A DNA stretch of 32,138 bases from Candidatus Methylomirabilota bacterium (GCA_016209725.1 JACQVO010000116.1:1-32138), one strand, 5' to 3'; positions 1,645 to 27,660 are shown, counted from the stretch's first letter. The notes: generated by a model from the sequence alone, not told the origin. Numbers and translations: made by a program.

Positions 1645-1701
1645 CTCCGTGGCCGGTTGTCGGTTGTCCGTTTTCCATTTTCAATTGAGGTGTAACCCGA
1701 C

Positions 1702-3045
1702 ATGGATCGTCTGACTCCCCGCCAGATCGTGGCGGAGCTCGATAAATACATCATCGGCCAGCACGACGCGAAGCGCGCCGTGGCCATCGCCCTCCGGAAT
1801 CGCTGGCGCCGGCAGAAGCTTCCCGCGGAGCTGCGGGACGAGGTCGCGCCGAAGAACATCATCATGATCGGCCCGACCGGTGTGGGCAAGACCGAGATCG
1901 CGCGCCGGCTGGCCCGGCTGGCCGAGGCCCCCTTCATCAAGGTGGAGGCCTCCAAGTACACCGAGGTCGGCTACGTGGGCCGGGACGTCGAGTCCATGAT
2001 CCGGGATCTGGTGGAGCTGGCGGTGAACATGGTCCGCGGCGAGAAGACCCGCCGGGTGGAGGAACGGGCGCGCGAGTTGGCGGAGGAACGCCTGCTGGAC
2101 CTTCTGCTGCCGTCGTCGCGGGTGGGGGCCTTCGGCCAGACGGTGGCGCCGGAGAGCGGCACCGCCCATGAGACCCGGGAGAAACTCCGGCAGCGGCTGC
2201 GGGAGGGCGCCCTGGATGACCGCACGGTGGAGGTGGATGTCGCCAATCGCGGCCTGCCCATGGTCGAGGTCCTCGGCGGGCAGGGCATGGAGGAGCTCCA
2301 GGAGAATCTTAAGGAGATGTTGGGGAACATCCTGCCCCAACGGACCAAGCGCCGCAAGGTGAAAATCAAGGAGGCGCACCGCATCCTGATGCAGGAGGAG
2401 GCGGACAAGCTGGTGGAGAAGGAGGAGGTGGTCAGCGAGGCCATTGCCCGCGTGGAGAATTCGGGGATCGTGTTCCTGGACGAGGTGGACAAGATCGCCG
2501 GACGCGAGCGGGCTCACGGCCCAGACGTGTCCCGGGAAGGGGTGCAGCGGGACCTGCTGCCCATCGTGGAGGGCTGCACGGTCAACACCAAGTACGGGCT
2601 GGTCCGGACGGACCACATTCTTTTCATCGCCGCCGGGGCCTTCCACGTCTCGAAGCCCTCGGACCTGATCCCGGAGATGCAGGGCCGGTTTCCCCTCCGG
2701 GTCGAACTCCCTAGCCTGACCCGCGAGGACTTCGAGCGCAACCTTACCGAGCCGGAGAAAGCCCTGACCAAGCAGTACACCGCCCTGCTGGCCACGGAAG
2801 GCGTGGGCCTGGAGTTCCTGCGAGACGCCATCCAGGAAATCGCCGCCATCGCCACCGCGGTCAACCAGGCCACCGAGAACATCGGTGCACGCCGCCTGTA
2901 TACCATCATGGAGCGGCTACTGGACGAGATCTCTTTCGAGGCCCCCCACATGGCAGGGGTCAAGGTGGCCATCGACGCCGAGCACGTGCGGCGGAAGCTG
3001 GCGAGCATCGTGAAGGACCAGGACCTCAGCCGCTACATCTTGTAG
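1702..3045 (+). CDS. hslU: ATP-dependent protease ATPase subunit HslU (ClpY)
   Basis: 447 aa. N-terminal [32 protein letters not shown], Walker [16 protein letters not shown], and C-terminal ...DLSRYIL. GAGGTG lies 10 nt upstream of the ATG. Confidence 0.95.
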
Positions 3046-3098
3046 CGTCAGGGCCTGGGGCGATCCCCCTGGGCTGGCAGGACGGCTGGGGGCCGGGG

Positions 3099-3989
3099 AT
3101 GCTGGACTGGGGACAGGCTATGGCTCCGGATCCGAGCAGGGCAGAGATCATCATCGGGGCGTTGCCCTTCATCCGCGCCTTCAGCGGGAAGACGGTGGTG
3201 GTCAAGTACGGGGGCAACGCCATGCTGGACCCCCAGCTCACCACGGCGGTCATCCAGGACCTCATCCTGATGCGGCTGGTCGGAATGCAGCCGGTGGTGG
3301 TCCACGGGGGTGGACCACAGATCGATCAGGCCATGCAGGCTTCCGGGTCGCAGCCGCGATTCGTCCAGGGCCTGCGCGTCACCGACGCCGATACCATGCG
3401 CACCGTCGAGCGGGTCCTGGTGGGGGAGATCAACCAGGAGATCGTCGCCTGGATCCAGCGTCTGGGAGGCGCCGCCATCGGCCTCTCGGGAAAGGACGGG
3501 GGATTGATCCAGGCCCGGAAGGCCGGCCCGGCCAGGGCCCCCGATGGGCAGATGGTGGACCTGGGCCTGGTGGGCGACGTGGCCAGGGTGGAACCCCGGC
3601 CCATCCGGGCCCTCCAGGACGCGGGATACATCCCGGTGGTGGCGCCCACGGCCGGCGATGAAACGGGCGCCACCTACAACATCAATGCCGACCTGGTGGC
3701 GGGAGAAATGGCCGCGGCCCTGGTGGCCGAGAAGCTGGTGCTCCTGACCGACACCGACGGAATTCTGGATCGCCAGGGGCGGCTGCTCTCCACCCTGTCC
3801 CGGCAGGAGGTGGAGCGTCTGATGGCGGACGGGACCATCAGCCGGGGGATGTTGCCGAAGGTGCAGGCGTGTCTCACCGCCCTGAAGGCCGGGGTGCGCA
3901 AGACCCACATCATCAACGGAACCCGGCAGCACGCGCTCATCGAGGAGCTTCTGACCCCCGAGGGAGTGGGGACGGAGATCGTGGCATAA
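3099..3989 (+). CDS. argB: Acetylglutamate kinase
   Basis: KTVVVKYGGNAM and VVVHGGGPQI motifs of the amino-acid kinase family, in arg gene context. An alternative start ATG is at 3120. Confidence 0.9.
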   Translation: MLDWGQAMAPDPSRAEIIIGALPFIRAFSGKTVVVKYGGNAMLDPQLTTAVIQDLILMRLVGMQPVVVHGGGPQIDQAMQASGSQPRFVQGLRVTDADTMRTVERVLVGEINQEIVAWIQRLGGAAIGLSGKDGGLIQARKAGPARAPDGQMVDLGLVGDVARVEPRPIRALQDAGYIPVVAPTAGDETGATYNINADLVAGEMAAALVAEKLVLLTDTDGILDRQGRLLSTLSRQEVERLMADGTISRGMLPKVQACLTALKAGVRKTHIINGTRQHALIEELLTPEGVGTEIVA

Positions 3990-3992
3990 CCG

Positions 3993-4095
3993 GCGATCAG
4001 GCAGCCTGGCAACCAGGCAAGTGGGCGATCAGGCAATCAGGCACCCAGGGAACTCGGAGCCCCTGAGTGCCGAGTCGCCGGATTGCCTGATTGCC
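3993..4095. repeat. Nested hairpin built from 8-nt tandem units (GCGATCAG/GGCAATCA) directly after the argB stop
   Basis: gcgatcaggca at 3993-4003 and ggcgatcaggcaatcaggcac at 4024-4044. ggcaatcaggca (4032-4043) pairs perfectly with tgcctgattgcc (4084-4095). The loop holds a second inverted repeat, actcgg...ccgagt. Confidence 0.7.
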
Positions 4096-4134
4096 AGTCG
4101 TGAGAGCTGAAGGTCAAGGACTTGTACTGAACGG

Positions 4135-5347: not shown

Positions 5348-6301
5348 ATGGAGCTCGTGATGAATCGCCATCTGGTCACGCTGGAGGATGTCACGCAGGC
5401 CGACGTCGAGGCGCTCTTCGACCTGGCGGCGTCCCTCAAGGCCAAGCAGCGGCAGGGCATCGCCCACCCGCTGCTCCAGGGGAAGACCCTGGCCATGGTC
5501 TTCGAGAAGCCGTCCCTGCGCACGCGGGTGACCTTCGAGGCGGGGATGACCCAACTGGGCGGACATGCCATCTATCTGGCGCCGGCCGACATCCGCCTGG
5601 GCCAGCGGGAGACGGTGCAGGATGCGGCCCGCAACCTGGAGCAGTGGGTGGACGGGATCGTCGCCCGCACCTTCAGCCACCAGATGGTGGAGCGCCTGGC
5701 CCTGTACTCCCAGATCCCCGTCATCAACGGCCTCAGCGACAGCCACCATCCCGTGCAGATCCTGTGCGACCTGTTCACCCTGTGGGAGAAGAGGGGGTCG
5801 CTGGCCGGCCGGCGGGTGACCTTCCTCGGGGATGGGAACAACGTCTGCCACTCCTGGCTTCAGGGGGCGGCCGCGCTGGGCCTGAGCTTCACGCTGGCCT
5901 GCCCGCCGGCATACGAGCCCGACCCGACGATCCTGGGCCGCGCCCAGGAACGCGCCAAAGCGAGCGGCGCCCGGCTGGAAGTGACCCACGACCCGCGGGC
6001 GGCGGTCCGGGAGGCGGATGTCCTCTACACCGACGTCTGGACCAGCATGGGCCAGGAAGAGGACCACGCGCAGCGTCTCCGCGACTTCCAGGGATTTCAG
6101 CTCGACCGCGCCCTCGTGGAGCAGGCCCGCCCGGACGTCCTGGTGATGCACTGCCTGCCGGCCCACCGGGGGGAGGAGATCACCGACGAGGTCATGGACG
6201 GCCCGCGGAGCATCATCTTCGACCAGGCGGAGAACCGCCTCCACATGCAGAAGGCGCTCCTGGTCAGACTCCTGGGACCCGGCGTCAGGGTGGTGAGCTA
6301 G
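5348..6301 (+). CDS. argF: Ornithine carbamoyltransferase
   Basis: Motifs SLRTRVTFE, HPVQILCDL, DVWTSMG and HCLPAHRGEE. An alternative start ATG is at 5360. Confidence 0.9.
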   Translation: MELVMNRHLVTLEDVTQADVEALFDLAASLKAKQRQGIAHPLLQGKTLAMVFEKPSLRTRVTFEAGMTQLGGHAIYLAPADIRLGQRETVQDAARNLEQWVDGIVARTFSHQMVERLALYSQIPVINGLSDSHHPVQILCDLFTLWEKRGSLAGRRVTFLGDGNNVCHSWLQGAAALGLSFTLACPPAYEPDPTILGRAQERAKASGARLEVTHDPRAAVREADVLYTDVWTSMGQEEDHAQRLRDFQGFQLDRALVEQARPDVLVMHCLPAHRGEEITDEVMDGPRSIIFDQAENRLHMQKALLVRLLGPGVRVVS

Positions 6302-6330
6302 TGTGGTGACTCCCAAATTCCATTACAATT

Positions 6331-6395
6331 CCGTTCACCCTGAGAGCTTGTCGAAGGGTGCGAAATCCGGGCTTCGACAAGCTCAGCCCGAACGG
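6331..6395. repeat. REP/MITE-like palindromic element, copy 1
   Basis: ccgttcaccctgagagcttgtcgaaggg (6331-6358) is an imperfect inverted repeat of cttcgacaagctcagcccgaacgg (6372-6395). The first ~45 nt are near-identical to 31794-31836. It generates the spurious peptide FDKLSPNG. Confidence 0.75.
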
Positions 6396-6476
6396 GCTTC
6401 ATGTAAAGCCTTTTCTGAGTCAGTACACTAGACGTCAGCGAATTACCGCTCCGGGTTCAAAGCATTCGACTGTTCT

Positions 6477-6549
6477 ACCGTTCGGTAGTTCGGCACGTAC
6501 GAGGTTGGCGGAACGGCCGAACCGCCGAACCGCCGAACTGCTGAACGCC
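6477..6549. repeat. Composite hairpin: GTTCGG x2, GTAC centre, then (GCCGAACC) tandem array
   Basis: accgttcggtagttcggcacgtac...ggccgaaccgccgaaccgccgaactgctgaacgcc. It has 8-nt periodicity and an inverted orientation of the two halves. The architecture matches 23921-23990. Confidence 0.75.
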
Positions 6550-6566
6550 TTTCGTCAGGTTGGAGG

Positions 6567-7370
6567 GTGACGGTGCGACTGACGGATAAAGCGGCCATGG
6601 TGACGGGTGGAGGGGCCGGGATCGGCCGCGCCATTGTGCTGGCTATGGCGCGGGAGGGCGCCGACATCGTCATCGCCGACCTCCGGCGGGAGGCCGCCGA
6701 AGCCGTGGCCAGGGAGGCGCAGGACCTGGGCCGGAAGGCGGCGGCGATCCGGGTGGACGTCGCCCAGGAGACCCAGGTGCAGCAGGCCATCGCGGACGGC
6801 ATCCGGCAGTTCGGGCACATCGATATCCTGGTGAACAATGCCGGGGTGACCCCGGGACTGGGCCTGCCTTTCACGCGCCAGGAGGAAGCCGACTGGGATA
6901 CGGTGTTCGATATCAACGTGAAGTCAGTCTTCTTCGCGTGCAAGGCCATCGCCCCGCACTTCATGCAGCGGCGGTCCGGCAAGATCATCAACATCGCCTC
7001 CATTGCCGGGCCGCTGTCCAGCTTGACCATGCCGTCTTACAGCGTCTCCAAGATGGGGGTGATCACCTTCACCCGGATCGTGGCCAAAGAGCTGGCGGCG
7101 TCCAACGTCAACGTGAACGCCATCTGTCCGGGCCTCCTCTGGACGGACATGTGGAAGAACATCGGTGAGGTGATTCGGGAGACGAATCCGGCGTACCGGG
7201 ACCTCACCCCTCGGCAGATGTTCGAAAAGCGCGTGGAGGAGTGGATCCCCTTGAAGCGGGAGCAGACGCCGGAGGATATCGGGCACGCCGCCGTGTTCCT
7301 CGCCTCCGAGGAGGCGCGCAACATCACCGGCCAAGCCCTGATGGTGGACGGCGGGGTGGTGATGCAGTGA
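6567..7370 (+). CDS. Short-chain dehydrogenase/reductase (FabG-like oxidoreductase)
   Basis: GTG start, 267 aa. TGGGAGIGRA Rossmann motif, NNAG, and YSVSK (YxxxK). Confidence 0.85.
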   Translation: MTVRLTDKAAMVTGGGAGIGRAIVLAMAREGADIVIADLRREAAEAVAREAQDLGRKAAAIRVDVAQETQVQQAIADGIRQFGHIDILVNNAGVTPGLGLPFTRQEEADWDTVFDINVKSVFFACKAIAPHFMQRRSGKIINIASIAGPLSSLTMPSYSVSKMGVITFTRIVAKELAASNVNVNAICPGLLWTDMWKNIGEVIRETNPAYRDLTPRQMFEKRVEEWIPLKREQTPEDIGHAAVFLASEEARNITGQALMVDGGVVMQ

Positions 7371-7375: not shown

Positions 7376-7404
7376 TGTTCGGCGGTTCGGCTGTTCGGCG
7401 GTTC
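7376..7404. repeat. (GTTCGGCG/GTTCGGCT) tandem array, inverse orientation of the 6515-6549 array
   Basis: ctgttcggcggttcggctgttcggcggttc starts 5 nt after the SDR stop. Its reverse complement shares gccgaaccgccgaac with the array 17 nt upstream of the SDR start. Confidence 0.75.
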
Positions 7405-7504
7405 ATGAGATAGCAAAGGGACAAGAGATCGGGTAGTAGTAATCTTACTGAGGATGAGTTGTCTGGTGCCTCATTCTCCGAGAAATTGAAGGAGGTGGTC
7501 CTCC

Positions 7505-7783
7505 ATGCCCCGCCTGCAGACTCCTGAGGGCGTCCGCATTGAAGTTCCGTTTGAGTCGCTTTCAGCGCAAGTTGCGAAGCTCCCTGTTGAGTCGCTTTCA
7601 GCGCTAGTTGCGAAGCTCCCTCAGGGGAAGAAGCTTCGCCTCTTCAAGGAGCTCATGGCTGAGCCTGCTATTGAGGATTGGGTGCTCGAAATGAATCCGC
7701 GTATCAGGAAAGAGATTCGTACTGCGCTGCGCGAAGAAGTGGAAGACTACCGGACATTTCGTCGGCGAGTCGTGGCAAGGTGA
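7505..7783 (+). CDS. Putative type II antitoxin (orphaned), 92 aa
   Basis: ATG is preceded by GAAGGAGGTGG. The stop overlaps the GTG of the RelE/ParE remnant (GTGA). The region is AT-richer than its surroundings. No confident family assignment. Confidence 0.5.
   Translation: MPRLQTPEGVRIEVPFESLSAQVAKLPVESLSALVAKLPQGKKLRLFKELMAEPAIEDWVLEMNPRIRKEIRTALREEVEDYRTFRRRVVAR
7551..7622 (+). repeat. 36-bp in-frame tandem duplication inside the antitoxin-like ORF
   Basis: ttgagtcgctttcagcgcaagttgcgaagctccctg (7551-7586) versus ttgagtcgctttcagcgctagttgcgaagctccctc (7587-7622), 2 mismatches. It encodes FESLSAQVAKLP/VESLSALVAKLP. Confidence 0.9.
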
Positions 7784-7951
7784 AACCATACCACGTTGAG
7801 GTCACGAAAGGGGGGCAGAAGCAGATATCGGAACTTTCTCCGAAGGACTTCCGGCGGATTGACCGATTATCGGATCATCTATCAAGTGAATGACGAGTCG
7901 GCAGTTGTGAAGGTGCTTCGGGTCATGCACAGGCGAGAGGTTTACCGGTAA
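7780..7951 (+). pseudogene. RelE/ParE-family toxin remnant (internal deletion plus frameshift)
   Basis: Frame 1 from GTG 7780 reads VKPYHVEVTKGGQKQISELSPKDFRRI, a typical RelE/ParE N-terminus. Frame 2 (7865-7951) reads [28 protein letters not shown], a typical C-terminus. The ~30 central residues are missing and the two parts are out of frame. Confidence 0.75.
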
Positions 7952-7992: not shown

Positions 7993-9207
7993 ATGGTGGG
8001 AAACATCAAGAAGATCGTGCTGGCGTACTCGGGCGGGCTGGACACGTCGGTCATCCTGCGGTGGCTGATCGAGACCTACCGGTGCGAGGTGGTGGCCTTC
8101 GTGGCCGACATCGGCCAGGGGGAAGAGGTCGGGCCGGTCCGGGAAAAGGCCCTGCGGACCGGGGCCAGCCAGTGCTACGTGGAGGACTTGCAGGACGAGT
8201 TCGTGCGGGACTTCGTCTTCCCCTGTCTCAAGGCGAACGCCCTGTACGAAGGGCGGTACCTCCTGGGGACCTCCATGGCCAGGCCCCTCATCGCCAAGGG
8301 GCAGATGGCCGTGGCGAAGAAAGAGCGCGCGGACGCCGTTTCCCACGGGGCCACCGGCAAGGGGAACGATCAAGTCCGATTCGAGTTGACCTATTACACC
8401 TTCGATCCCCATATCCAGATCATCGCCCCGTGGCGCGAGTGGAACTTCCGCTCGCGGACGGATCTGGTGGAGTACGCGAAGAAGCACGGGATCCCCACGC
8501 CGGTCACGGCGGAGCGTCCCTACAGCAGCGACCGGAATCTGTTCCACATCAGCTTCGAGGGGGGCATCCTGGAAGACCCCTGGGCCGAGCCCCCGGAGAA
8601 GATGTACGTCCTGTCGGTCTCGCCCGAACTGGCTCCCAACCGGGCGACCTGCGTGGAGATCGGTTTCGAGCGGGGGATCCCCGCGGCCGTGGATGGGGAG
8701 CGGATGGGCCCCGCCGCGCTACTGGCTCACCTCAACCGGCTGGGGGGCGAGAACGGGATCGGCCGGGTGGACATGGTAGAGAACCGCTATGTGGGGATGA
8801 AATCCCGCGGGGTGTACGAGACCCCGGGCGGCACCATCCTGCAGGCGGCGCACCGGGCGGTGGAGTCCATCACCATGGACCGCGAGGTGATGCATCTCAG
8901 GGATTCGCTCACCCCGCGCTTCGCGGAGCTGGTCTATTACGGGTACTGGTATTCGCCGGAGATGGAGCTGCTCCGGACGACCATCGACGAGTCCCAGAAG
9001 ATGGTGACGGGCACCGCCCGTCTCAAACTGTACAAGGGCAACTGCGACGTGGTGGGGCGCAAGTCCCCGGTGTCCCTCTACGACCCCGAGTTCGCGACCT
9101 TCGAGGCGGAGCAGGTGTACCAGCAATCGGACGCCACCGGGTTCATCCGGCTGAACGCCCTCCGCCTGCGAATCCGGGCCCTGACCCAGACGCGGCAGCA
9201 GGGTTGA
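7993..9207 (+). CDS. argG: Argininosuccinate synthase
   Basis: [15 protein letters not shown]-type ATP pyrophosphatase motif, with full-length similarity to ArgG. The track ORF starts at GTG 7978. ATG 7993 gives the usual N-terminal length, so the start is uncertain by 5 codons. Confidence 0.93.
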
Positions 9208-9230
9208 GGCAGGCGGGAGGCCCTCGCCAT

Positions 9231-10394: not shown

Positions 10395-10410
10395 CGGCGG
10401 GAGCGGCGGC

Positions 10411-18693: not shown

Positions 18694-19230
18694 CGTCTTC
18701 CCCTTCCAGGCTCCGATCATCGTTGGCCGGACGGTTGCCGGGCAGGCGGTTGGCTGCCCTGCGAGTGCGGCGACTGGCAACGTGCCCGTTGGCTCTTCCT
18801 GCCGGCGTCTCGGCTGCGGGAAACCATCGGCTTGCGTCGGTCGGAGCCGAGCCTCCGGTCGACGAGTGGCGACAACTCCGCAGCACCCCGAGGGACGATG
18901 CAGCCCCCTGGAAGTGAGGATGGATTGTTGAGCCTTGTTCCCGGAAAAACGATCGGAACTGGGTGGCCTCGATGGGAAGGTAGCGATCACGGTCCCCTGT
19001 GTCAACGGAGAATGCCGGCCTCGTGCGGACCGCCACACAAAGGGCCGTGGGTCCCGAACTCGGCTGGCTGGTCTCTCGAGAGACCCTGCGTCTCGGGCTG
19101 GAGGGGCGGCGGTCGGCCCCAACGATTTTGCTTTTGACAGCCGCGTCCACCTATGGTACGCATTTCCTCGTTCGTCGGCCCCCAGGGATGCCGCGACTCT
19201 CCTCCGCATCAGGCAGAAAGGCACAACCGC

Positions 19231-20490
19231 ATGCATCATTTCCACTATCGCGGCGACGACCTCTATTGCGAGGAGGTGCCGGTCGCCCGGATCGCCTCCG
19301 AGGTCGGCACGCCGGCATATGTGTACAGCCACGCCACATTGACCCGCCACTTCCGGATCTTCGACCAGGCCTTTGCCGCCGTGCCGCACCTGGTGTGCTT
19401 CGCCATGAAGGCGAACGCGAACCTGGCGGTGCTGAAACTCTTCTCGGATCTGGGGGCCGGCCTGGACGTGATCTCCGGGGGGGAGTTATTCCGCGGTCTC
19501 AAGGTCGGAGTGCCGCCGCAGCGGATCGTGTTCGCCGGCCCCGGTAAGACGCGCGAGGAGATCGGCTACGCCCTGAAATCCGATATCCTGATGTTCAACG
19601 TGGAGTCGGGGCAGGAGCTTCGGTTGATCCACGAGGTGGCCTCGGGGATGGGCATGCGGGCGCGGGTGGCCCTGCGGGTGAACCCGGACGTGGACGCGAA
19701 GACCCACCCGTACATCTCCACGGGCTTGAAGCAGAGCAAGTTCGGCATCGACATCGAGCGCGCCGTGGAGGAGTACGAGGCGGCGAAGTCCCTGGCGGCT
19801 CTGGAGGTCGTGGGGATCCACCAACACATCGGCTCCCAGATTACCAAGGTCCAACCCTTCGTGGACTCGTTGGAGAAGACGGCGGGCCTGGTGCGGAGGC
19901 TGCGGGAGCAGGGGACGGATATCCGGTACATTGACGTGGGCGGCGGCCTGGGAATCACCTACAAGGACGAGGAGCCGCCCCTGCCCGCCGAATTCGCCCA
20001 GGCATTGATCGGGGTGGTCCGCGATCTGGGCGCCACGGTCGTCCTGGAGCCGGGGCGAGTCCTGGTGGGCAACGCCGGCATCCTGGTGACCCGCATCCTG
20101 TACACCAAGCAGAGCCCGGCCAAGAATTTCCTGGTGGTGGACGCGGGGATGAACGACCTGGCGCGTCCGAGCCTGTACGGATCCTACCACGCCATCCGTC
20201 CCGTGCGCCGCGTGGCCGATCGGCCCGACGTCACGGTGGACGTCGTGGGGCCGATCTGCGAGTCGGGCGACTTCCTGGCCAAGGACCGAGCCCTGCCCCG
20301 CTGCCAGCCGGGCGAGTTGCTGGCGGTGATGTCGGCGGGGGCGTACGGCCATAGCATGTCCTCCAACTACAATGCGCGGCCGCGGGCCCCCGAGGTGGTG
20401 GTCTGCGGGGATCGCATCCACGTGGTGCGCGCGCGCGAAACCTTCGACGATCTGATACGGGGCGAACGGACGCTGGACGAGGTGACGTAG
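19231..20490 (+). CDS. lysA: Diaminopimelate decarboxylase
   Basis: Internal ATG of track ORF 19153..20490 (MHHFHYRGDDLYCEEV...). Motifs FAMKANANLAVL (PLP Lys), DVGGGLGI and ICESGD. Confidence 0.93.
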   Translation: MHHFHYRGDDLYCEEVPVARIASEVGTPAYVYSHATLTRHFRIFDQAFAAVPHLVCFAMKANANLAVLKLFSDLGAGLDVISGGELFRGLKVGVPPQRIVFAGPGKTREEIGYALKSDILMFNVESGQELRLIHEVASGMGMRARVALRVNPDVDAKTHPYISTGLKQSKFGIDIERAVEEYEAAKSLAALEVVGIHQHIGSQITKVQPFVDSLEKTAGLVRRLREQGTDIRYIDVGGGLGITYKDEEPPLPAEFAQALIGVVRDLGATVVLEPGRVLVGNAGILVTRILYTKQSPAKNFLVVDAGMNDLARPSLYGSYHAIRPVRRVADRPDVTVDVVGPICESGDFLAKDRALPRCQPGELLAVMSAGAYGHSMSSNYNARPRAPEVVVCGDRIHVVRARETFDDLIRGERTLDEVT

Positions 20491-20541
20491 GCCGGGACGA
20501 AGGCAGGCCGGACAAACGCAGGCACGTCGGGAGGTGCGGCC

Positions 20542-21426
20542 ATGGCAAAGCGGGTATTTCAGGGCTCTCTGGTGGCGCTCGTCACGCCGTTTCGGGACGG
20601 AAAGGTGGACGAGGCCAAGCTGAAGGAGTTGGTGGAATTCCAGATCGCCGGCGGGACCGATGCTATCGTCCCCTGCGGGACCACGGGTGAATCGCCGACC
20701 CTGGACCACGACGAGCACAAGCGGGTCGTGGACGTCGTGATCGCCGCAGTCAACAAGCGGGTTCCGGTGGTGGCCGGCACAGGCTCCAACAGCACGGCCG
20801 AGGCCATCACCCTTACCAAGCACGCCAAGGCCTCGGGCGCCGACGGGGCCCTGGTCGTTCTCCCCTATTACAACAAGCCCACCCAGAAGGGGTTGATCGA
20901 GCACTGCCGGGCCATCGCGGACGCGGCGGACCTGCCGCTCATCCTCTACAACATCCCGGGGCGCACCGGCGTGAACATGCTGCCCGAGACGCTGGCGCAA
21001 CTGGCCGATCATCCCAATATCGTCGGGATGAAGGAGGCCACGGGCAACCTGGAGCAGATGACCCAGGACATCGTCCTGTGCGGCGACAAGCTGAGTTTCC
21101 TGTCGGGCGACGACACGCTGACATTGCCGCTGATGGCGGTGGGCGGGCGCGGGATCATCTCGGTGGTGGCCAACATCGTCCCCAAGGACGTGGCGGACAT
21201 GACCCACGCCTTCCTCAACGGGGATTGGAAGCGGGCCCGGGAGCTCCACCTCAAGCTCTTCCCCCTCTGCCAGGCCATGTTCATCGAGACCAATCCCATC
21301 CCGGTGAAGACCTCGCTGGCCATGATGGGCAAGATTCGGGAGGAGTTCCGCCTGCCGCTCTGCCCGATGACCGAGGCCAACCGGAAGAAGCTGGAGACCG
21401 CCCTCCGAAGTTACGGGCTGCTGTAG
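20542..21426 (+). CDS. dapA: 4-hydroxy-tetrahydrodipicolinate synthase
   Basis: GTTGESPTL, YNKP, and GMKEATG (Schiff-base Lys); 294 aa. Confidence 0.95.
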   Translation: MAKRVFQGSLVALVTPFRDGKVDEAKLKELVEFQIAGGTDAIVPCGTTGESPTLDHDEHKRVVDVVIAAVNKRVPVVAGTGSNSTAEAITLTKHAKASGADGALVVLPYYNKPTQKGLIEHCRAIADAADLPLILYNIPGRTGVNMLPETLAQLADHPNIVGMKEATGNLEQMTQDIVLCGDKLSFLSGDDTLTLPLMAVGGRGIISVVANIVPKDVADMTHAFLNGDWKRARELHLKLFPLCQAMFIETNPIPVKTSLAMMGKIREEFRLPLCPMTEANRKKLETALRSYGLL

Positions 21427-21430
21427 AGCC

Positions 21431-21450
21431 GACAGTGACAGGGACAGGGA
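21431..21450. repeat. (GACAGNG)x3 tandem heptamer directly after the dapA stop
   Basis: gacagtg acaggg acaggga, starting 5 nt after TAG 21424-21426. Confidence 0.5.
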
Positions 21451-21561
21451 GCGAGCCCGGGGTGGAGGCAAAGAGGGATTGTCCTTCCGGACACTAGACT
21501 GGCTTTTCCCGGTGAACCGGATGGGAGGGCAGAAGCGCTGAGCTGGTGTCGACTTCAATAG

Positions 21562-21639
21562 CCGTTCGCCCTGAGTCCCGCCCTGGCGGGATCGAAGGGC
21601 GGACGGGCACCCGTGTTTCGACAGGCTCAACACGAACGG
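21562..21639. repeat. REP/MITE-like palindromic element, divergent copy 2
   Basis: ccgttcgccctgag...atcgaaggg ... tttcgacaggctcaacacgaacgg has the same termini as the copies at 6331 and 31794, plus an extra internal hairpin cccgccctggcggg. It generates the peptide PFVLSLSKHG on the minus strand. Confidence 0.65.
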
Positions 21640-21700
21640 CAACTACCGACGGGGTCCCAATGTTCGCATATGGGGTGGGAGGAACAGGGAGGGATTGGCC

Positions 21701-22507
21701 GTGATCAAGGCCGTCGTCACGGGTGCCTCGGGGCGCATGGGAAAGCGACTGATCGCCCTGCTCCGTGAGAGCGGAGAGTTCCAGGTCGCGGGAGCGGTGG
21801 AGCGCAGGGACCACGTGGACCTGGGACGGGACGCGGGAGAGGTGGCCGGGGTCGGCCCACTGGGCGTGTCCATCGTGGACGCCATCGGCAAGGCGCTCCC
21901 CGGTGCGCAGGTCGTCCTGGATTTCACGGCGCCTGCGGCCGCCATGCAGCACCTGGAGGCGGCGAGCCAGGCCGGGGTGGCCGCGGTGGTCGGCACGACC
22001 GGGTTGAGCGAGGCGGACCTGAAGCGGGCCCGCGAGCTGACCGCCGGGATCCCCTGCGTCCAATCGCCGAACATGAGCGTGGGGGTCAACGTCCTGTACG
22101 GAGTCCTGGCGGATGTCGCGCGGACGCTGGGAGACGGGTACGACATCGAGGTGATCGAGGCGCACCACCACTTCAAGAAGGATTCCCCCAGCGGCACGGC
22201 GGATCGGATGGCCCGCGTGCTGGCGGAGGCCCTGGGGCGCGACCTGCGCAAGGCGGGCGTGTACGGGCGGCACGGAATCGTGGGCGAGCGGACGAAGGAA
22301 GAGATCGGCGTTCACGCCATCCGGGCCGGCGACATCGTGGGGGAGCATACGATCCTGTTCGGCGGGATGGGGGAGCGTATCGAGATCATCCACCGCGCCC
22401 ACAGCCGGGACAACTTTGCATACGGCGCCCTGCGGGCCGCCCGCTGGGTCGTGGGCAGATCCCCCGGCCTGTATGACATGCTGGATGTCCTGGGACTGAG
22501 AAAGTAG
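21701..22507 (+). CDS. dapB: 4-hydroxy-tetrahydrodipicolinate reductase
   Basis: VVTGASGRMG NAD(P) motif and the EAHHHFKKDSPSGTA signature. The start is GTG 21701 or TTG 21695. Confidence 0.93.
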   Translation: MIKAVVTGASGRMGKRLIALLRESGEFQVAGAVERRDHVDLGRDAGEVAGVGPLGVSIVDAIGKALPGAQVVLDFTAPAAAMQHLEAASQAGVAAVVGTTGLSEADLKRARELTAGIPCVQSPNMSVGVNVLYGVLADVARTLGDGYDIEVIEAHHHFKKDSPSGTADRMARVLAEALGRDLRKAGVYGRHGIVGERTKEEIGVHAIRAGDIVGEHTILFGGMGERIEIIHRAHSRDNFAYGALRAARWVVGRSPGLYDMLDVLGLRK

Positions 22508-22626
22508 AGTCGAGAGACGAGAGTCGCGAGCCGAGACCACGGGGAAGGACCCGGGCGGCGGCGACGGGGGAGCCGGAGCCCGGGACGGGCCCCCGGGTGA
22601 TCAATGCCGAGACGGAAGGGACAGGG

Positions 22627-22705
22627 GCGACAGCGACAGGGATGGCCGACAGCGAGAAGTTCTCGGAGGACCCCTTCGGATTTCGCTGTCGGATCACGCT
22701 GTCGG
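22627..22705. repeat. CGACAGCG tandem units with inverted CGCTGTCGG x2 (hairpin) in the dapB-dapL spacer
   Basis: gcgacagcgacagg at 22627-22640. ccgacagcga (22646-22655) pairs perfectly with tcgctgtcgg (22683-22692). A second cgctgtcgg lies at 22697-22705. Confidence 0.7.
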
Positions 22706-22733
22706 ATTTCGGTTCTTTCTGAAAGGGACGGGC

Positions 22734-23912
22734 ATGGCTGAGCACACGCAGGCGAACCGGCTTCAGGCACTCCCGCCGTACCTGTTCGCCGAGATGGACC
22801 GGATGAAGCAGGAGCAGGTGAAGAAAGGGGTGGACATCATCAGCCTCGGGATCGGCGATCCCGACTTGCCGACGCCCGCCCACATCGTGGAGGCGTTGGC
22901 CAGGGCTGCGGCCGATCCGGCGAATCACCAGTATCCGTCCTACGAGGGGATGCCGGCCTTCCGGGCGGCGGCGGCCGATTGGTACCGGGCTCGCTTCGGC
23001 GTGACCCTCGACCCGGCGACGGAGGTCCTGAGCCTCATCGGCTCCAAAGAGGGGATCGGGCATTTCCCGCTGGCCTTTGTGAATCCCGGCGATGTGGTCC
23101 TGATCCCCGACCCCGCCTATCCGGTGTACCAGGCCGGCACGGTCTTCGCCGGCGGCGTACCGCATCCGATGCCCCTCACGCGCGCCCGCGACTTCCTGCC
23201 GGACCTGGACGCCATTCCGGGCGATGTCCTGAAGCAGGCACGGGTCCTCTGGCTGAACTACCCCAACAACCCGACGGGGGCGGTGGCGCCGCGGGAGTTC
23301 CTGGCCCGGGCAGTGGAGTTCGCCCGCCGCCACCGGCTGATCCTGGCCCACGATGCGCCGTACTCCGAGATGGCCTATGACGGTTACCGCCCCGAGAGCG
23401 TGCTGAGCGTCACCGGCGCCAAGGAGGTCGCGGTCGAGTTTCATTCGCTCTCCAAGACCTACAACATGACTGGCTGGCGCGTGGGATTTGCGGTGGGGAA
23501 TGCGGCGATCCTGGCAGGCCTCGGACGCATCAAGACGAACCTGGACTCCGGTATATTCCAGGCGGTGCAGGTCGCCGGCATCGCCGCCCTGACCGGGCCG
23601 CAGCAGGTTGTGGCGGACAACTGCCGCGTGTACCAGGCACGGCGGGATGTGCTGGTGGGGGCATTGCGGGAGATGGGGTTCGATGTTCAGGTGCCCAGGG
23701 CGACCTTCTACCTGTGGGTGCCTGTGCCGAAGGGGTTCACCGCGAAGAGCTTCAGCATCGAGGTCCTGGCGAAGGCCGGGGTCGTCCTCACGCCCGGGAG
23801 TGGCTTCGGCGCGGCCGGTGAGGGGTACGTTCGGGCCGCTCTCACGGTCGGCGTGGACCGCATCCGCGAGGCGGTGGAGCGCCTCCGGAAACTGGGAATC
23901 CGGGGGAACTGA
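22734..23912 (+). CDS. dapL: LL-diaminopimelate aminotransferase (DapL-type class I aminotransferase)
   Basis: N-terminal LPPYLFAEMDRMK...ISLGIGDPDLPTP and SLSKTYNMTGWRVG (PLP Lys). It follows dapA-dapB, and no dapD/dapE/dapC genes are seen here. Confidence 0.8.
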   Translation: MAEHTQANRLQALPPYLFAEMDRMKQEQVKKGVDIISLGIGDPDLPTPAHIVEALARAAADPANHQYPSYEGMPAFRAAAADWYRARFGVTLDPATEVLSLIGSKEGIGHFPLAFVNPGDVVLIPDPAYPVYQAGTVFAGGVPHPMPLTRARDFLPDLDAIPGDVLKQARVLWLNYPNNPTGAVAPREFLARAVEFARRHRLILAHDAPYSEMAYDGYRPESVLSVTGAKEVAVEFHSLSKTYNMTGWRVGFAVGNAAILAGLGRIKTNLDSGIFQAVQVAGIAALTGPQQVVADNCRVYQARRDVLVGALREMGFDVQVPRATFYLWVPVPKGFTAKSFSIEVLAKAGVVLTPGSGFGAAGEGYVRAALTVGVDRIREAVERLRKLGIRGN

Positions 23913-23920
23913 GGAAAGAC

Positions 23921-23990
23921 GTTCGGCTGTACGGCAGTTCGGCAGTACGACGGTACCGCCGAACGGTCGAACGGTCGAACCGCCGAACGC
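23921..23990. repeat. Composite hairpin GTTCGGC x2 / GTAC centre / (CGCCGAAC, GGTCGAAC) x4
   Basis: gttcggctgtacggcagttcggcagtacgacggtaccgccgaacggtcgaacggtcgaaccgccgaacgc fills the whole dapL-folB spacer. It belongs to the same family as 6477-6549. Confidence 0.8.
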
Positions 23991-23992
23991 TT

Positions 23993-24349
23993 ATGCGGGA
24001 TCGGATTCTCATCCACGGCATCCAGTTCCACGGGCATCACGGGGTGCGCGAGGAGGAGCGGAAGCTCGGCCAGCGCTTCGTGGTGGATGTGGATCTCCGG
24101 CTCGACCTGGCGCCCGCGGCCGGCGCCGACAACGTCGCCGCCACGGTGGACTACGAGCGGGTGCACGCTCTGGTGGAGGAAGTGGGGACCCGGGAGTGCT
24201 TCAACCTTTTGGAGACCCTGGCAGAGCGGATCGCCTCCACCATCCTGGAGCGGTTCCCGGTGCGGCAGGTCACGATCCGGGCCACCAAACCCTCGCCGCC
24301 CATCGCCGGCATGGTCGGCGGGGTCTCCGTGGAGATCACACGACCGTGA
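23993..24349 (+). CDS. folB: Dihydroneopterin aldolase
   Basis: 118 aa. IHGIQFHGHHGVREEERKLGQRFVVDVDL is typical of FolB. Confidence 0.9.
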   Translation: MRDRILIHGIQFHGHHGVREEERKLGQRFVVDVDLRLDLAPAAGADNVAATVDYERVHALVEEVGTRECFNLLETLAERIASTILERFPVRQVTIRATKPSPPIAGMVGGVSVEITRP

Positions 24350-24846
24350 CGGTCCAGGCGTTCGTGGGCATCGGCTCCAACCTGGGTGACCGCCTGGCCT
24401 ATTGCCGGGCGGCGCTGGACCGGCTCGCCCTGCTGCCGGGCACGACCCTCACGCGAGTCTCCCCTTTCTTCGAGTCGGAACCCCGGGAGGGTGTGGAGGG
24501 GGGGCTGTTCCTGAACGGGGTGGCGGAGATCGCCACGCGCCTCTCACCACGAGAGCTCCTCGGTCACCTGCAGGGGATCGAGGCGGCCCTGGGTCGCCCG
24601 CCGGACCATTTGCCGGGGACCGCGCGGAGCATGGATCTGGACATCCTGCTGTACGGCGAGACCGTGCTGCACGAGCCCGACCTGACGATTCCCCATCCCC
24701 ACATGGCGGCGCGGCGGTTCGTGCTGGCGCCTCTTACCGCCCTGGCGCCCGCGGTTCGTCATCCCCTCTTGAAGCTCACCGCGGCGGAGTTGCTTCGCCG
24801 TCTCGGCCCGGAGGCCTCGGCGGTCCCCCTGGGGGTGCGCGGATGA
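24346..24846 (+). CDS. folK: 2-amino-4-hydroxy-6-hydroxymethyldihydropteridine pyrophosphokinase
   Basis: The GTG overlaps the folB stop (GTGA). Motifs AFVGIGSNLGDR, RSMDLDILLYG and IPHPHMAARRFVL. The upstream part of track ORF 23608..24846 is shadow. Confidence 0.9.
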   Translation: MTVQAFVGIGSNLGDRLAYCRAALDRLALLPGTTLTRVSPFFESEPREGVEGGLFLNGVAEIATRLSPRELLGHLQGIEAALGRPPDHLPGTARSMDLDILLYGETVLHEPDLTIPHPHMAARRFVLAPLTALAPAVRHPLLKLTAAELLRRLGPEASAVPLGVRG

Positions 24847-25499
24847 AAAAGACGCCGACGCCCCCCCGCTACATCGTGGTGGAGGGCGCCATCGGGGTGG
24901 GGAAGACGAGCCTCGTGGACCTCCTGGCGGAGCGTCTGGGGGCGCGGAAGCTCCTGGAGGTGGCCGAGGACAACCCGTTCCTCCCGAATTTCTACAAGGA
25001 CCCGCGGCGCTCCGCCTTCCAGACCCAGCTCTGGTTTCTCCTGAACCGGTTCCGCCAGCAGCAGGAACTCGGCCAGTTCGACCTGTTCCGCCAGACCCTG
25101 GTGGCCGACTATCTGTTCGCCAAGGACAAGATCTTCGCCTATCTCACGCTGGAGGATCACGAGCTGGCCCTCTACGAGCGGGTCCACGCGCTGCTCCAGG
25201 TGCGGGTGTCCACGCCGGACCTGGTGATCTTCCTCCAGGCGAACACCGAGGCGCTCCTGCAGCGGATCGCGATCCGGGGCAAGGGGTACGAGCGGGAGAT
25301 TGACCGCAAGTACCTGGCCGACCTGAACGAGGCGTACACGCATTTCTTTTTCCATTACACCGCGTCGCCGCTGCTGGTGGTGAATACCAGCGACATCGAC
25401 TTCGTCAACCGCAGGGAGGACTTCGAGGACCTGATCAAGAAGATCGGGGAGACCCGCGCGGGGATGCACTACTACGTACCGCTTGGATCCCGCAGGTAA
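24843..25499 (+). CDS. Deoxynucleoside kinase family protein
   Basis: The ATG overlaps the folK stop (ATGA). P-loop VVEGAIGVGKTSL and RIAIRGKGYE (LID-like Arg-rich motif); 218 aa. Confidence 0.8.
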   Translation: MKKTPTPPRYIVVEGAIGVGKTSLVDLLAERLGARKLLEVAEDNPFLPNFYKDPRRSAFQTQLWFLLNRFRQQQELGQFDLFRQTLVADYLFAKDKIFAYLTLEDHELALYERVHALLQVRVSTPDLVIFLQANTEALLQRIAIRGKGYEREIDRKYLADLNEAYTHFFFHYTASPLLVVNTSDIDFVNRREDFEDLIKKIGETRAGMHYYVPLGSRR

Positions 25500-25524
25500 A
25501 ACCAGAGGGACCGAGACGGCCTAG

Positions 25525-25553
25525 GATTGCGGCAATCGGGCAATCGGGCACTC
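25525..25553. repeat. GATTGC + (GGCAATCG)x2-3 tandem octamer after the kinase stop
   Basis: gattgcggcaatcgggcaatcgggcac. The unit is closely related to the GGCAATCA unit at 4024-4044. Confidence 0.65.
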
Positions 25554-25708
25554 CGGGAAAATGGAATTCCGGATAGCCCCGCCGCAGGCGGGGTTGCCTG
25601 AGCACCTGGGTGCCGAGCGGCTGCACCGCCTGCCGGCCTGGAGGCGCCGGAGCCCATGGGGGACCGGGAGCCTCTCCAGGACCGGAGGGAGGGTGCGCCG
25701 GTGTCATT

Positions 25709-25744
25709 GGCCTTCCGGATCGGTCCGGAAGGCCTTTGTGCTTT
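25709..25744 (+). terminator. Intrinsic-terminator-like hairpin upstream of panB
   Basis: ggccttccgga-tcgg-tccggaaggcc forms a perfect 11-bp stem with a tetraloop, followed by tttgtgcttt. It ends ~20 nt before the panB AAGGAGGGG RBS. Confidence 0.55.
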
Positions 25745-25775
25745 ACAGGCCCTGACCAGACAAGGAGGGGACCAC

Positions 25776-26612
25776 ATGACGCGAGACAAGGTGACGGTCC
25801 GGACACTCCGCCGGATGAAGGAACGGGGCGAGAAGATCACCATGCTCACGGCCTACGATGTCTCCACGGCGCGGGCGGTGGATGACGCGGGACTCGACGT
25901 CGTCCTCGTGGGGGACTCCCTGGGCATGGTGGTCCTCGGGTATCCGACGACGCTGCCGGTGACCATGGACGAGATGGCGCATCACGCCAGGGCGGTGGCC
26001 CGCGGCATCTCGCGCGCCCTGCTCGTCGTGGACCTTCCCTTCATGTCGTACCAGGTGAGTCGAGAGGATGCGCTTCGCAATGCGGGACGCCTCCTGAAAG
26101 AGGACGGGGCAGAGGCGGTCAAGCTGGAAGGGGGACGGGAGGTCGCAGGGACGGTCGAGGCCCTGGTGGCGGCCGGGATCCCGGTCATGGGGCACCTGGG
26201 CTTGACCCCGCAGGCCTTCCATCAGATGGGCGGATATCGCGTCCAGGCCCGAAGCGCCGAGGAAGCCGACCGGCTCCTGAAGGACGCCGCGGCCTTGGAA
26301 CGGGCGGGGATCTTCGCCCTGGTCTTGGAGGGGATTCCGGCCGAGGTTGCCCGACGGGTCAGTCAGGCCCTTTCCGTGCCAACCATCGGCATCGGGGCCG
26401 GACCGTTTTGCGACGGGCAGGTTCTGGTCACCCACGATATGCTGGGCCTCCAGACCGACCTGTCGCCCAAGTTCGTCAAACGGTACATGCATGCCCGTCA
26501 GCTCTTCGTGGAAGCCATGCGGCAGTTCCGTGACGAGGTGCGCTCGGGGGCATTTCCCGGCCCCGAGCACAGCTACGACCTCGATCCTCCCACGCCGCAA
26601 GGCGCTCCATAG
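25776..26612 (+). CDS. panB: 3-methyl-2-oxobutanoate hydroxymethyltransferase
   Basis: Internal ATG of track ORF 25656..26612, with AAGGAGGGG upstream. Motifs [16 protein letters not shown] and VKLEGG. Confidence 0.93.
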
Positions 26613-26761
26613 CTCTGGCGCGTGCGGGTCCGGGTCTCGCGCGAGGGCGTCACGCTCCCGTCGCAGCCAGGCGTTGCCCGGCCCGGCGCGCAGAGGGCGG
26701 CGAGTGCTGGCATCATCCGACCCGTATCCTGGCTCGGGCCAACCTGGCGGAGGACGGATTC

Positions 26762-27607
26762 ATGCAGACCATTGAGACCCCGAGGGACATGCAGAAGCTG
26801 GCCGAGGATCATCGCCGCGCGGGGCAATCCATCGGCCTCGTCCCCACCATGGGGGCGCTGCACGAGGGCCACCTGAGCCTGATCCGGCGCTGCCGGGCCG
26901 AGAACGACGTGGCCATCATGAGCCTGTTCGTGAACCCGACCCAGTTCAACCGCCAGGACGATCTGGACCGCTACCCCCGCGACCTCGCAGGGGATAGCGG
27001 GCTGGCCCGCGAGGCCGGCGTGGACATCATCTTCGCGCCCACGGTCGAGGGAATGTATCCCCAGGGGTACCAGACCTCCGTCACCCTGGAGCAGCTTCCG
27101 ACGCGATGGGAAGGCACCTCGCGTCCTGGCCACTTCCAGGGCGTGGCCACGGTCTGCACGAAGCTGTTCACCATCTGCCGGCCGCACCGGGCCTATTTCG
27201 GCCAGAAGGATTATCAGCAGTCCCGGGTGGTCCGGCGCCTGGCGGCCGACCTCAACCTGGACCTCGAGATCGTCGTCCTGCCCACCGTGCGGGAGGCGGA
27301 TGGGCTGGCCCTCAGCTCCCGGAACGTGCTGTTGAAACCGGAGGAGCGACGCCAGGCGAGGGTCCTCTCCCAGGCCCTGTTCCAGGCCCAGGCCGACGTC
27401 CGCGCCGGGCAGCGCGATGCCACTCGCCTGCACGCCGCCATCGAGGATCGCATCCAGACCGCTCCCTTGGCCGTTCTGGACTACGTCGGCGTGTGCGACC
27501 CGGAGACGCTGGTGCCGCTGGAGAAGATCGAGGACAGGGCCGTCGCCGTGGTAGCCGCCAGCTTCGGCACGACGCGCCTCATAGACAATGCGCTCCTGGA
27601 ACCGTAA
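26762..27607 (+). CDS. panC: Pantoate--beta-alanine ligase
   Basis: PTMGALHEGHLSL (HxGH) and FGQKDYQQ; 281 aa. Confidence 0.95.
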   Translation: MQTIETPRDMQKLAEDHRRAGQSIGLVPTMGALHEGHLSLIRRCRAENDVAIMSLFVNPTQFNRQDDLDRYPRDLAGDSGLAREAGVDIIFAPTVEGMYPQGYQTSVTLEQLPTRWEGTSRPGHFQGVATVCTKLFTICRPHRAYFGQKDYQQSRVVRRLAADLNLDLEIVVLPTVREADGLALSSRNVLLKPEERRQARVLSQALFQAQADVRAGQRDATRLHAAIEDRIQTAPLAVLDYVGVCDPETLVPLEKIEDRAVAVVAASFGTTRLIDNALLEP

Positions 27608-27611
27608 CTGG

Positions 27612-27660
27612 AATGACCAATGACGCAATGACCAATGACCAATGAATTTGAAGAATTGGT
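27612..27660. repeat. (AATGACC)x4-5 tandem heptamer plus an inverted AATTGGT after the panC stop
   Basis: aatgacc aatgacgc aatgacc aatgacc aatgaat ttgaag aattggt, starting 5 nt after TAA 27605-27607. Confidence 0.75.

Follow-up and report, generated by a model that had tools for sequence, protein, structure and literature searches.

Short tandemly repeated repetitive (STRR) sequences have been catalogued in bacteria since 1990, and to our knowledge neither an origin nor a function has been accepted for repeats of this type. The present study concerns a class of such repeats in Candidatus Methylomirabilota, in which arrays of 7- or 8-nt units, often accompanied by an inverted partner array with which they form a hairpin, are located just past stop codons between housekeeping genes. 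We analyzed them in a contig of 32,138 nucleotides (GCA_016209725.1 JACQVO010000116.1:1-32138; contig C48, referred to as the window below) belonging to an assembly of 2.9 Mb in 305 contigs with 65.8% GC, in the genome as a whole and in its relatives. We consider it probable that these repeats are insertion-derived, family-structured palindromic elements that are tolerated in operon junctions, where they undergo slippage, decay, deletion and replacement, and that are linked to the entry of small accessory genes.

Several comparable systems have been described. In filamentous cyanobacteria, STRR heptamers form hairpins between hupS and hupL, for which a role in transcript stability or translational coupling was proposed (PMC2670836), and the units of Nostoc PCC 7120 include TTGTCAG, CCACTGA and ATTGCGA, with CAACTGA/CTGACAA also being listed (PMC2408588). 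The heptamers GGGAATC of Xanthomonas and GGGGAYT of Nostoc were analyzed by Rehm et al. 2015 (PMC4692102). In the high-GC Xanthomonas genome GGGAATC forms about 70 convergent pairs and about 90% of the repeats are intergenic; the upstream open reading frame (ORF) is about 28 nt away and the downstream one about 160 nt, and the spacers concerned are mostly co-directional and rarely divergent (PMC4692102). The patchy occurrence of TAACTGA repeats in marine Beggiatoaceae, Cyanobacteria and Bacteroidetes suggests horizontal spread by a mechanism that is not known (MacGregor 2015, PMC4679880), and among long simple-sequence repeats heptamers are named there as the most frequent class in many bacteria (Mrazek 2007, cited in PMC4679880). 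A further system, the intervening sequences (IVS) of 23S rRNA genes, carries an ORF for an S23p or four-helix-bundle protein in Coxiella and Leptospira (PMC4990558).

Like the described STRR-type repeats, the arrays of this genome are over-represented, occur as convergent pairs, are placed near stop codons in co-directional spacers and include a unit common to described members. They share with the cyanobacterial STRR the tandem 7-nt units, the many families per genome, the intergenic or intercistronic location and the inverted arrays able to form hairpins, but the host belongs to another phylum and has 66% GC, octamers are as common as heptamers, and the arm order of the AATGACC hairpin is opposite to the cyanobacterial one. 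AATGACC is the complement of TTGGTCA, which we take to be STRR2 of Mazel et al. 1990. The positional statistics of the elements are the same as those of Xanthomonas GGGAATC, whose units are G-rich and quadruplex-forming while most units found here cannot form such structures, and where one unit dominates compared to at least ten here. With the TAACTGA repeats they share the organization as intergenic heptamer arrays, TAACTGA being one base off the CAACTGA of the GACAACC family described below; the 169 TAACTGA sets, however, are nearly all direct, with a single inverted one, and lie just before start codons, whereas inverted pairs dominate here and are biased toward stop codons. The 23S rRNA intervening sequences are matched elsewhere in this genome by inverted arms around a TIGR02436/PF05635 gene, while the nine loci of the window are gene-less and located between protein-coding genes rather than within rRNA; no STRR-like insertions were found in the RNase P RNA genes of relatives. 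Repetitive extragenic palindromic sequences and their hairpin doublets (REP/REPIN), which are mobilised by REP-associated tyrosine transposases (RAYT; PMC3116915), resemble the elements: both are extragenic doublets of hairpins whose arms are conserved, both comprise several families and hundreds of copies, and both are enriched in co-directional spacers. REP arms, however, are single imperfect palindromes and not tandem arrays. A RAYT/REPIN reading was rejected, as no period 6-9 arrays of the present families were found on the flanks of any of the 10 Y1-transposase (PF01797) genes.

No published description of such repeats was found for this phylum in the literature. A preliminary description of the window, made from its sequence, had recognized a recurrent structural class of tandem units with an inverted partner just past stop codons and had added that no described class with these properties was known to its author. 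The class holds genome-wide; its supposed novelty is not supported, given that STRR (PMC2670836), Xanthomonas GGGAATC (PMC4692102) and TAACTGA (PMC4679880) fit. The kind of element is thus already described and its mechanism is not; the present work adds a new host phylum, octamer families and data on turnover.

Abundance and family structure of the elements

Arrays in the window were called by Tandem Repeats Finder (TRF) with a period of 7 or 8, and the chance level was taken from first-order Markov simulations of intergenic DNA. Genome-wide, intergenic arrays were far above simulated chance, with 213 period-7 arrays compared to 15.2 in the simulations (approximately 14-fold) and 124 period-8 arrays compared to 16.0 (approximately 8-fold). 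An inverted copy was present within 1.5 kb of 338 of the 730 period-7/8 arrays, mostly with a loop of less than 80 nt, and unit-shuffled controls exhibited far fewer inverted partners than the real arrays. Merging of the arms yielded 173 hairpin elements of 50-160 bp (median length 87 nt, median loop 29 nt), in addition to about 240 lone arrays. Each arm of a hairpin element consists of a single 7- or 8-nt unit repeated in tandem, and as RNA these elements fold with a mean energy of about -46 kcal/mol. The GC content of the elements (56.6%) is below that of intergenic DNA (63.5%). An assembly artefact was ruled out, as the elements recur in independently assembled congeners and in the contigs of other public runs. 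Contigs of DNA and RNA runs alike end at these repeats.

At least ten unit families coexist in this genome, and those built from octamers, in which the eighth base is degenerate, equal the heptamer families in frequency. The units were originally thought to differ at every locus of the window, but its nine loci draw on about five families (GTTCGGCN at three, GGCAATCN at two and GACAGCG at two loci, as well as GACAACC and AATGACC), all of which have many copies elsewhere in the genome. The abundant units have a G/C-rich start followed by a common A-A-pyrimidine core. Within each family the order of the arms is near-absolute (40:2, 22:1, 20:0, 19:0, 18:0 and 17:0), with GTTCGGC in the 5' and GCCGAAC in the 3' position in 40 of 42 arms, AATGACC in the 5' position in 20 of 20 and AATGCGG in 22 of 23. 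Since arm order is invariant under reverse complementation, it marks common descent or a common process and not gene direction. The non-repeat ends of the GTTCGGC elements are conserved as well (AAAAGC-(GTTCGGCN)n ... (NGCCGAAC)n-GCTTTT), the GACAACC elements shade outward into A/T-rich unit variants such as GGTTTTCAATTTT, and in the AATGTCG and GACAACC families the unit variants follow a conserved order. The variable eighth base of the GTTCGGCN arrays follows no order conserved from copy to copy.

This family structure bears on whether the repeats might have been generated in situ instead of being imported, either by 7-8-nt slippage combined with template switching for the inverted arm or by a unit-adding enzyme. 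Such a process would agree with the inconstant order of the eighth base, with loops that are unrelated between copies, with the steps of 7 nt in unit number between strains at 22506-22536 and with the occurrence of the same unit in either polarity in different phyla, as well as with the general abundance of heptamers (Mrazek 2007, as cited in PMC4679880). The near-absolute polarity of each family within the genome, the conserved non-repeat termini, the conserved unit-variant order of the AATGTCG and GACAACC families, the AT-rich units foreign to a 66% GC genome and the confinement of families to one genus make it a doubtful explanation to us. A fold-back or self-templated origin was rejected: the two arms of an element are no more complementary to each other than the arms of different copies are, which is evidence against fold-back copying.

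Placement of the elements in operons

The elements were located in 125 co-directional, 8 convergent and 5 divergent spacers, against a background of 1479, 166 and 191 spacers, respectively; the 8 of 138 in convergent spacers compare with 12.5 expected from spacer number and 14 from spacer length. With a median distance of 11 nt from the upstream stop and 35 nt to the next start, the positional bias toward stop codons is present genome-wide. After subtraction of the element, the spacers have a median of 52 nt, and 37% of them measure 30 nt or less, as do 37% of the element-free junctions, whose median is 65 nt, which makes the elements additions to otherwise normal spacers. Lone arrays point with and against transcription at similar frequency (43 versus 35), but those of the 5'-arm type lie a median of 7 nt after the stop and those of the 3'-arm type a median of 29 nt before the next start, as would be expected for halves of larger elements. 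The preliminary description had placed arrays in almost every longer spacer, which is too strong, as about 9 of the 13 plus-strand spacers of more than 30 bp carry them. It had also remarked on their absence from a minus-strand two-component block; this is confirmed but carries no weight because genome-wide 70 elements lie between minus-strand pairs of genes and 55 between plus-strand pairs.

As GC-containing hairpins immediately past stop codons, some with A-rich and T-rich outer units such as GGTTTTCAATTTT in the GACAACC family, the elements have the outward appearance of intrinsic terminators or insulators at gene 3' ends, which was one of the roles proposed initially. This role is contradicted by the data. 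For the 140 hairpins that lie in co-directional spacers, T residues were counted in the 8 nt following the stem: five or more were present on the sense strand of only one hairpin and on the antisense strand of seven, and four or more on those of 3 and 15, respectively. Convergent gene ends are not enriched (8 elements compared to 125 in co-directional spacers), and elements occur within the obligate pairs hslV-hslU and argD-argF. A terminator scan flagged none of the window hairpins in 19000-29000 while flagging a canonical site at 25709-25734. We therefore regard a terminator function as extremely improbable, and the scarcity of T-runs on the sense strand would fit selection against termination within operons. 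The canonical site, a terminator-like stem with T-run (GGCCTTCCGGATCGGTCCGGAAGGCC TTTGTGCTTT) upstream of panB, is conserved in the congener G015 and is preceded by a decaying hairpin 100 nt before it. Rfam returned no family match anywhere in the window.

A function at the RNA level within operons has more in its favor. The hairpins could protect the upstream cistron from 3'-exonucleases, provide a site for RNase III or fold out of the transcript and so keep termination-reinitiation coupling between neighboring cistrons. The folds are very stable (mean -46 kcal/mol), with z-scores of -3.6 to -5.8 for the five strong hairpins of the window, and the median start of the elements at 11 nt past the stop is within reach of a terminating ribosome. 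At the dapL-folB junction the base of the stem joins the stop (8 nt) to the ATG (1-3 nt), and in the related genome G027 this junction measures 1 nt and has no Shine-Dalgarno sequence. The lower frequency of T-runs on the sense strand (1 versus 7 of 140) is compatible with such a device, and transcript stability or translational coupling was also proposed in the cyanobacterial literature (PMC2670836). On the other hand, folding of the sense strand is barely favored over that of the antisense strand in stability (-46.2 versus -45.1 kcal/mol) and not at all in G-U pairs (354 versus 358), and complementarity between the arms of one element (0.69) does not exceed that between arms of different copies (0.73), with no sign that pairing is maintained by compensation. 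The suggestion that the elements stabilise mRNA 3' ends is thus without support from either strand asymmetry or covariation. The orientation of lone arms is unbiased (43 versus 35), elements decay, as at 25520-25612, where the element is degraded here and intact in G015, and close relatives either lack them or carry others at the corresponding junctions. Even without selection, moreover, a palindrome able to fold out would be tolerated. We judge a function as RNA device to be unlikely, though less so than the other alternatives to an insertion origin.

Turnover at orthologous junctions

The gene map on which the positional counts rest was made with a purpose-made codon-usage caller; its stops are exact, whereas its starts are approximate. 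According to NCBIfam and Pfam, the window begins with hslV, a DUF6922 gene, an AbiEii gene, hslU, argB, argD, argF and a short-chain dehydrogenase/reductase (SDR) gene, continues with a ParE remnant and its partner ORF, argG, a gene of 387 aa, argH and further genes, and ends with lysA, dapA, dapB, dapL, folB, folK, a deoxynucleoside kinase gene, panB, panC and panD. TRF recovered arrays at all nine loci that had been listed in the preliminary description (1654-1672, 3988-4053 with 4077-4095, 6511-6546, 7377-7404, 21431-21450, 22676-22711, 23924-23989, 25531-25550 and 27612-27645) and an additional one at 22506-22536 that was absent from that list. Of the nine loci, five fold as strong hairpins and one weakly, while the three lone arms do not fold. 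Junctions were compared across up to 30 related genomes, with the congener G015 being used junction by junction; it exhibits synteny over most of the window and 78-87% DNA identity within aligned blocks. Strains were compared through assembled contigs of other public runs (DNA and metatranscriptome).

Orthologous spacers of congeners were found empty, occupied by the same family or occupied by a different family, which amounts to turnover. The same family was present in the window and G015 at three junctions. Between argF and the SDR gene, a GTTCGGCN-family hairpin (6479..6547; fold of 6468-6552 -40.7 kcal/mol, z -4.6), with GTTCGG units in the 5' arm and GCCGAACC units in the 3' arm, has an orthologous hairpin with another loop in G015. 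The GGCAATCG-family hairpin after the deoxynucleoside-kinase gene (25520..25612; -47.1 kcal/mol, z -3.6) is decayed, while its counterpart at the kinase-panB junction of G015 is intact. The (AATGACC)x4.7 array after panC (27612..27645; TRF score 59), whose inverted partner is vestigial only and where 27608-27672 folds weakly (z -2.2), corresponds to an orthologous AATGACC array between panC and panD of G015. In contrast, different families occupy two other junctions: the hairpin between argB and argD (3990..4098; TRF; -61.1 kcal/mol, z -5.8) is of the GGCAATCN/GCGATCAG family and is replaced in G015 by an AATGACC array, and the CGACAGCG / CGCTGTCG hairpin between dapB and dapL (22628..22712; fold of 22622-22712 -45.4 kcal/mol, z -4.6) is replaced by the family CAATTGGT.

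Between argD and argF, the window has a 13-nt spacer and G015 a GACAACC hairpin of 95 nt. Five congeners carry such a hairpin of about 95 nt at this junction, two genomes have a variant or vestige of it, and six, the present one among them, lack it. The dapL-folB junction of the window is filled by a GTTCGGCN-family hairpin (23916..23992; fold of 23915-23992 -40.3 kcal/mol, z -5.0) that begins 8 nt past the stop and ends 1-3 nt before the folB ATG. In some relatives this junction is empty, and at least four unit families are found in it across the others. The GTTCGGC family is shared by this genome with G007, G014 and G015, and G004 retains a single GTTCGGC unit. Different unit families are present in G013, G002 and G019, G005 carries a hairpin without repeat units, and G027 has the spacer of 1 nt.

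A lone (GACAGNG)x3 array called by TRF at 21431..21450, 5 nt past the dapA stop, is unfolded (21428-21500, z +0.15); G015 has a short plain spacer in its place, and related strains diverge over 21445-21699. Within the dapB stop codon starts the (AGAGTCG)x4.4 array (22506..22536; TRF), followed by a unique GC-rich segment of 68 nt (22538-22605) that is bounded by the direct repeat GCCGAGAC. Contigs of other runs that lack this segment join position 22515, 22529 or 22536 to 22606, with 8 letters shared at the joint, and their left breakpoints thus differ by 14 and 7 nt, which suggests variation in unit number between strains. The possibility that the 68-nt segment is itself a mobile element was rejected, as it is single-copy in the genome.

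Nested insertions within hairpins were also observed in G015. In its contig C10, a GC-rich palindrome, GGCACCCACGCCACGGCGGCG ... CGCCGCCGTGGCGTGGGTGCC, is nested in two different GTTCGGC hairpins (SDR-argG and dapL-folB) and represents a small element of another type, for which GTTCGGC hairpins serve as insertion sites. On the same contig hslU and argB are separated by about 1.09 kb of inserted DNA that codes for a response-regulator-like protein (MDTILIVEDERLF...), where the window has a spacer of 53 nt.

Accessory genes at element sites

Two toxin-type modules of the window, AbiEii and ParE, sit where G015 has intact hairpins, and at each of these sites one arm is lost in the window. Just upstream of hslU, TRF identified a lone 3' arm of the GACAACC family (CCGGTTGTCGGTTGTCCGTTTTCCATTTTCAATTGAGG; 1653..1691), whose 5' arm and loop are gone and whose segment (1645-1700) does not fold by itself. 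The hslV-hslU junction of G015 contains a complete GACAACC hairpin with a 3' arm near-identical to the lone one, while in the window a plus-strand module of DUF6922 and AbiEii nucleotidyltransferase toxin (743..1644; Pfam PF21956 and PF08843) lies between these two genes where the 5' arm and loop would be expected. The first gene of this pair begins 3 nt past the hslV stop codon. The module is missing from G015, and for related strains sampled elsewhere the contig depth over 901-1500 is about 0.

Similarly, a lone 5' arm consisting of 3.5 copies of GTTCGGCN (7376..7404; TRF) is located 6 nt past the stop of the SDR gene, and the segment 7372-7440 does not fold. At the SDR-argG junction G015 possesses a complete GTTCGGC hairpin with a second palindrome nested in the loop. 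The position expected for the loop and 3' arm is occupied in the window by a plus-strand toxin-antitoxin remnant (7505..7950), identified from translations as a 92-aa ORF and a ParE-type toxin, the C-terminal piece of which matches Pfam PF05016; the toxin gene is frame-shifted and has lost an internal portion. The ParE module is likewise missing from G015, and depth is 0 over 7501-7800 in related strains. The 92-aa ORF contains a perfect-like duplication of 36 nt (7551-7621, 97% match).

Elsewhere in the genome, all five near-full-length genes for TIGR02436 (four-helix-bundle, "23S rRNA IVS protein") have short-repeat arrays on both sides, which are clearly inverted in four cases, the partner being uncertain on contig C137. 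One of the two GxxExxY nuclease genes is flanked by inverted arrays. Together with the toxin modules at element sites, these accessory genes bracketed by the same arms suggest that the hairpins are the gene-less and commonest form of a cassette-like element or, alternatively, hot spots for gene insertion. Copies bearing cargo number only about 7 compared to 173 empty hairpins, and none of the nine window loci holds a PF05635 or TIGR02436 ORF between its arms; the window loci can at most be regarded as gene-less relatives of IVS-type cassettes. The cassette link is real in this genome and is not the whole explanation. Cargo as a general rule was rejected, since genes with arrays on both sides are ordinary housekeeping genes of normal size. 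On contig C130 (10102-11580), a 421-aa aconitase-family large-subunit gene, LeuC-like by eye from its translation, lies between GTTCGGC and GCCGAAC arrays that each belong to their own flanking hairpin, which cautions against calling every array pair one cassette.

Occurrence in other genomes

The distribution within the phylum was surveyed in a sample of 201 genomes from 61 genera. Three copies of GTTCGGCN in tandem were detected in 12 of the 16 sampled genomes of the genus (own genome included) and in one other genome, with 0-70 copies, and three copies of AATGACC in 14 of the 16 genus genomes and nowhere else in the sample. Beyond the phylum, the matches listed for the exact AATGACC 21-mer include Cyanobacteria, Bacteroidota, Planctomycetota, Verrucomicrobiota, Myxococcota, Acidobacteriota, Gemmatimonadota and others; the cyanobacterial matches listed include exact AATGACC x3 in Nostoc, Anabaena, Calothrix and many Nostocales. 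In a contig of a Victivallales metagenome-assembled genome (L056, 5400-5622), arrays of GGTCRGA, GGTCATT, GTCCRCC and TTCGGGC adjoin without spacers and have the appearance of one array mutating into the next.

Within the phylum sample, TIGR02436 genes were present in 42 of the 56 genomes in the order of the window compared to 4 of the 145 genomes in other orders, and in a small sample high-scoring arrays were found in other genera of the same order and scarcely in other orders. Such a concentration could indicate that the arrays serve as sites for a protein that reads single- or double-stranded units, be it a nucleoid, regulatory or four-helix-bundle protein, and that the hairpin is incidental. 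The conservation of arms next to loops that are free to vary would suit this explanation, and so would the common A-A-pyrimidine core after a G/C-rich start in the abundant units. However, at least ten different units within one genome are difficult to reconcile with a binding site, a period of 7-8 nt would not match one face of the DNA helix, and lone arrays have no orientation bias relative to transcription. Moreover, the correlation exists at the level of the order while the unit families exist at the level of the genus, and no four-helix-bundle gene was detected near the AATGACC arrays of other phyla. Protein binding as the basis of these arrays therefore appears very unlikely to us.

Additional features of the window

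A palindromic repeat of a different, non-tandem kind, GTTCRCCCTGAG ... CTCARCMCGAACGG, has two copies in the window (6318-6398 and 21560-21642), for which the genome contains 67 and 10 matches of at least 30 nt, respectively. The depth of contigs from other metagenomes rises 10- to 50-fold over 6301-6600. The gene of 387 aa between argG and argH (9231-10394) has strong coding statistics and no NCBIfam match; it keeps its place in G015, where the block 8008-12885 aligns as a single piece.

Discussion

The placement, family structure and turnover described above led us to favor dispersed, family-structured insertions, and we infer from them that the elements are mobile and neutral for the host. 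A copy would land in a short intercistronic junction and survive when placed after the stop codon and ahead of the next ribosome-binding site, so that proximity to stop codons would reflect tolerated insertion sites and not a signal function. Arrays would then gain or lose units by slippage, and the element would either decay or be deleted and replaced. In this form the elements would be operon passengers, co-transcribed as very stable stem-loops and not acting as terminators. The "footprints of a repeat-generating mechanism" offered among the roles in the preliminary description come closest to the evidence if they are taken to mean insertion of family-structured elements followed by slippage of units.

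A number of observations weigh against this interpretation. Neither a transposase or recombinase for the elements nor a caught insertion event was found, and flank alignments of three families revealed no consistent target-site duplication, even though the inverted termini are conserved. While the arms of different copies are 79-87% identical, their loops are not related (0.57-0.64 compared to 0.53-0.63 when shuffled), and the elements are therefore unlike simple copy-and-paste miniature inverted-repeat transposable elements. The bias toward stop codons is also present in long spacers, which could mean function or targeting. In other phyla, AATGACC pairs within 1.5 kb of each other had the opposite arm order at 13 loci compared to 2 among the first 80 stretches listed, so that it is the unit and not the hairpin that is the common property. 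Finally, no four-helix-bundle gene was detected in stretches of about 8 kb around the AATGACC arrays of other phyla (586 kb, searched with a 4-sequence hidden Markov model that may be insensitive), and the cassette link may accordingly be secondary.

A broader proposal, which we put forward tentatively and consider unlikely as it stands, is that STRR, the Xanthomonas pairs, the heptamer and octamer hairpins described here and the ORF-bearing 23S intervening sequences belong to one horizontally spreading system that is defined by its unit. The unit would be read or made by a trans-acting factor, for which an Avd-like four-helix-bundle protein is a candidate, and the gene-less hairpins would be the commonest remains of the system and landing pads for toxin-antitoxin or defence modules.

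This genome represents a dense, many-family case with comparable congeners. It sharpens the picture of these repeats as elements that behave like insertions into normal junctions, are not terminators, show no sign of selection for pairing and turn over at orthologous junctions. The units, but not the polarity of the hairpins, are common across phyla, and the elements coincide with sites of entry of small toxin or defence genes into housekeeping operons. On the practical side, the repeats break short-read assemblies and can mislead predictors of terminators and small RNAs. A trans-acting factor, if found, would explain a widespread genome feature and could explain how accessory genes enter essential operons.

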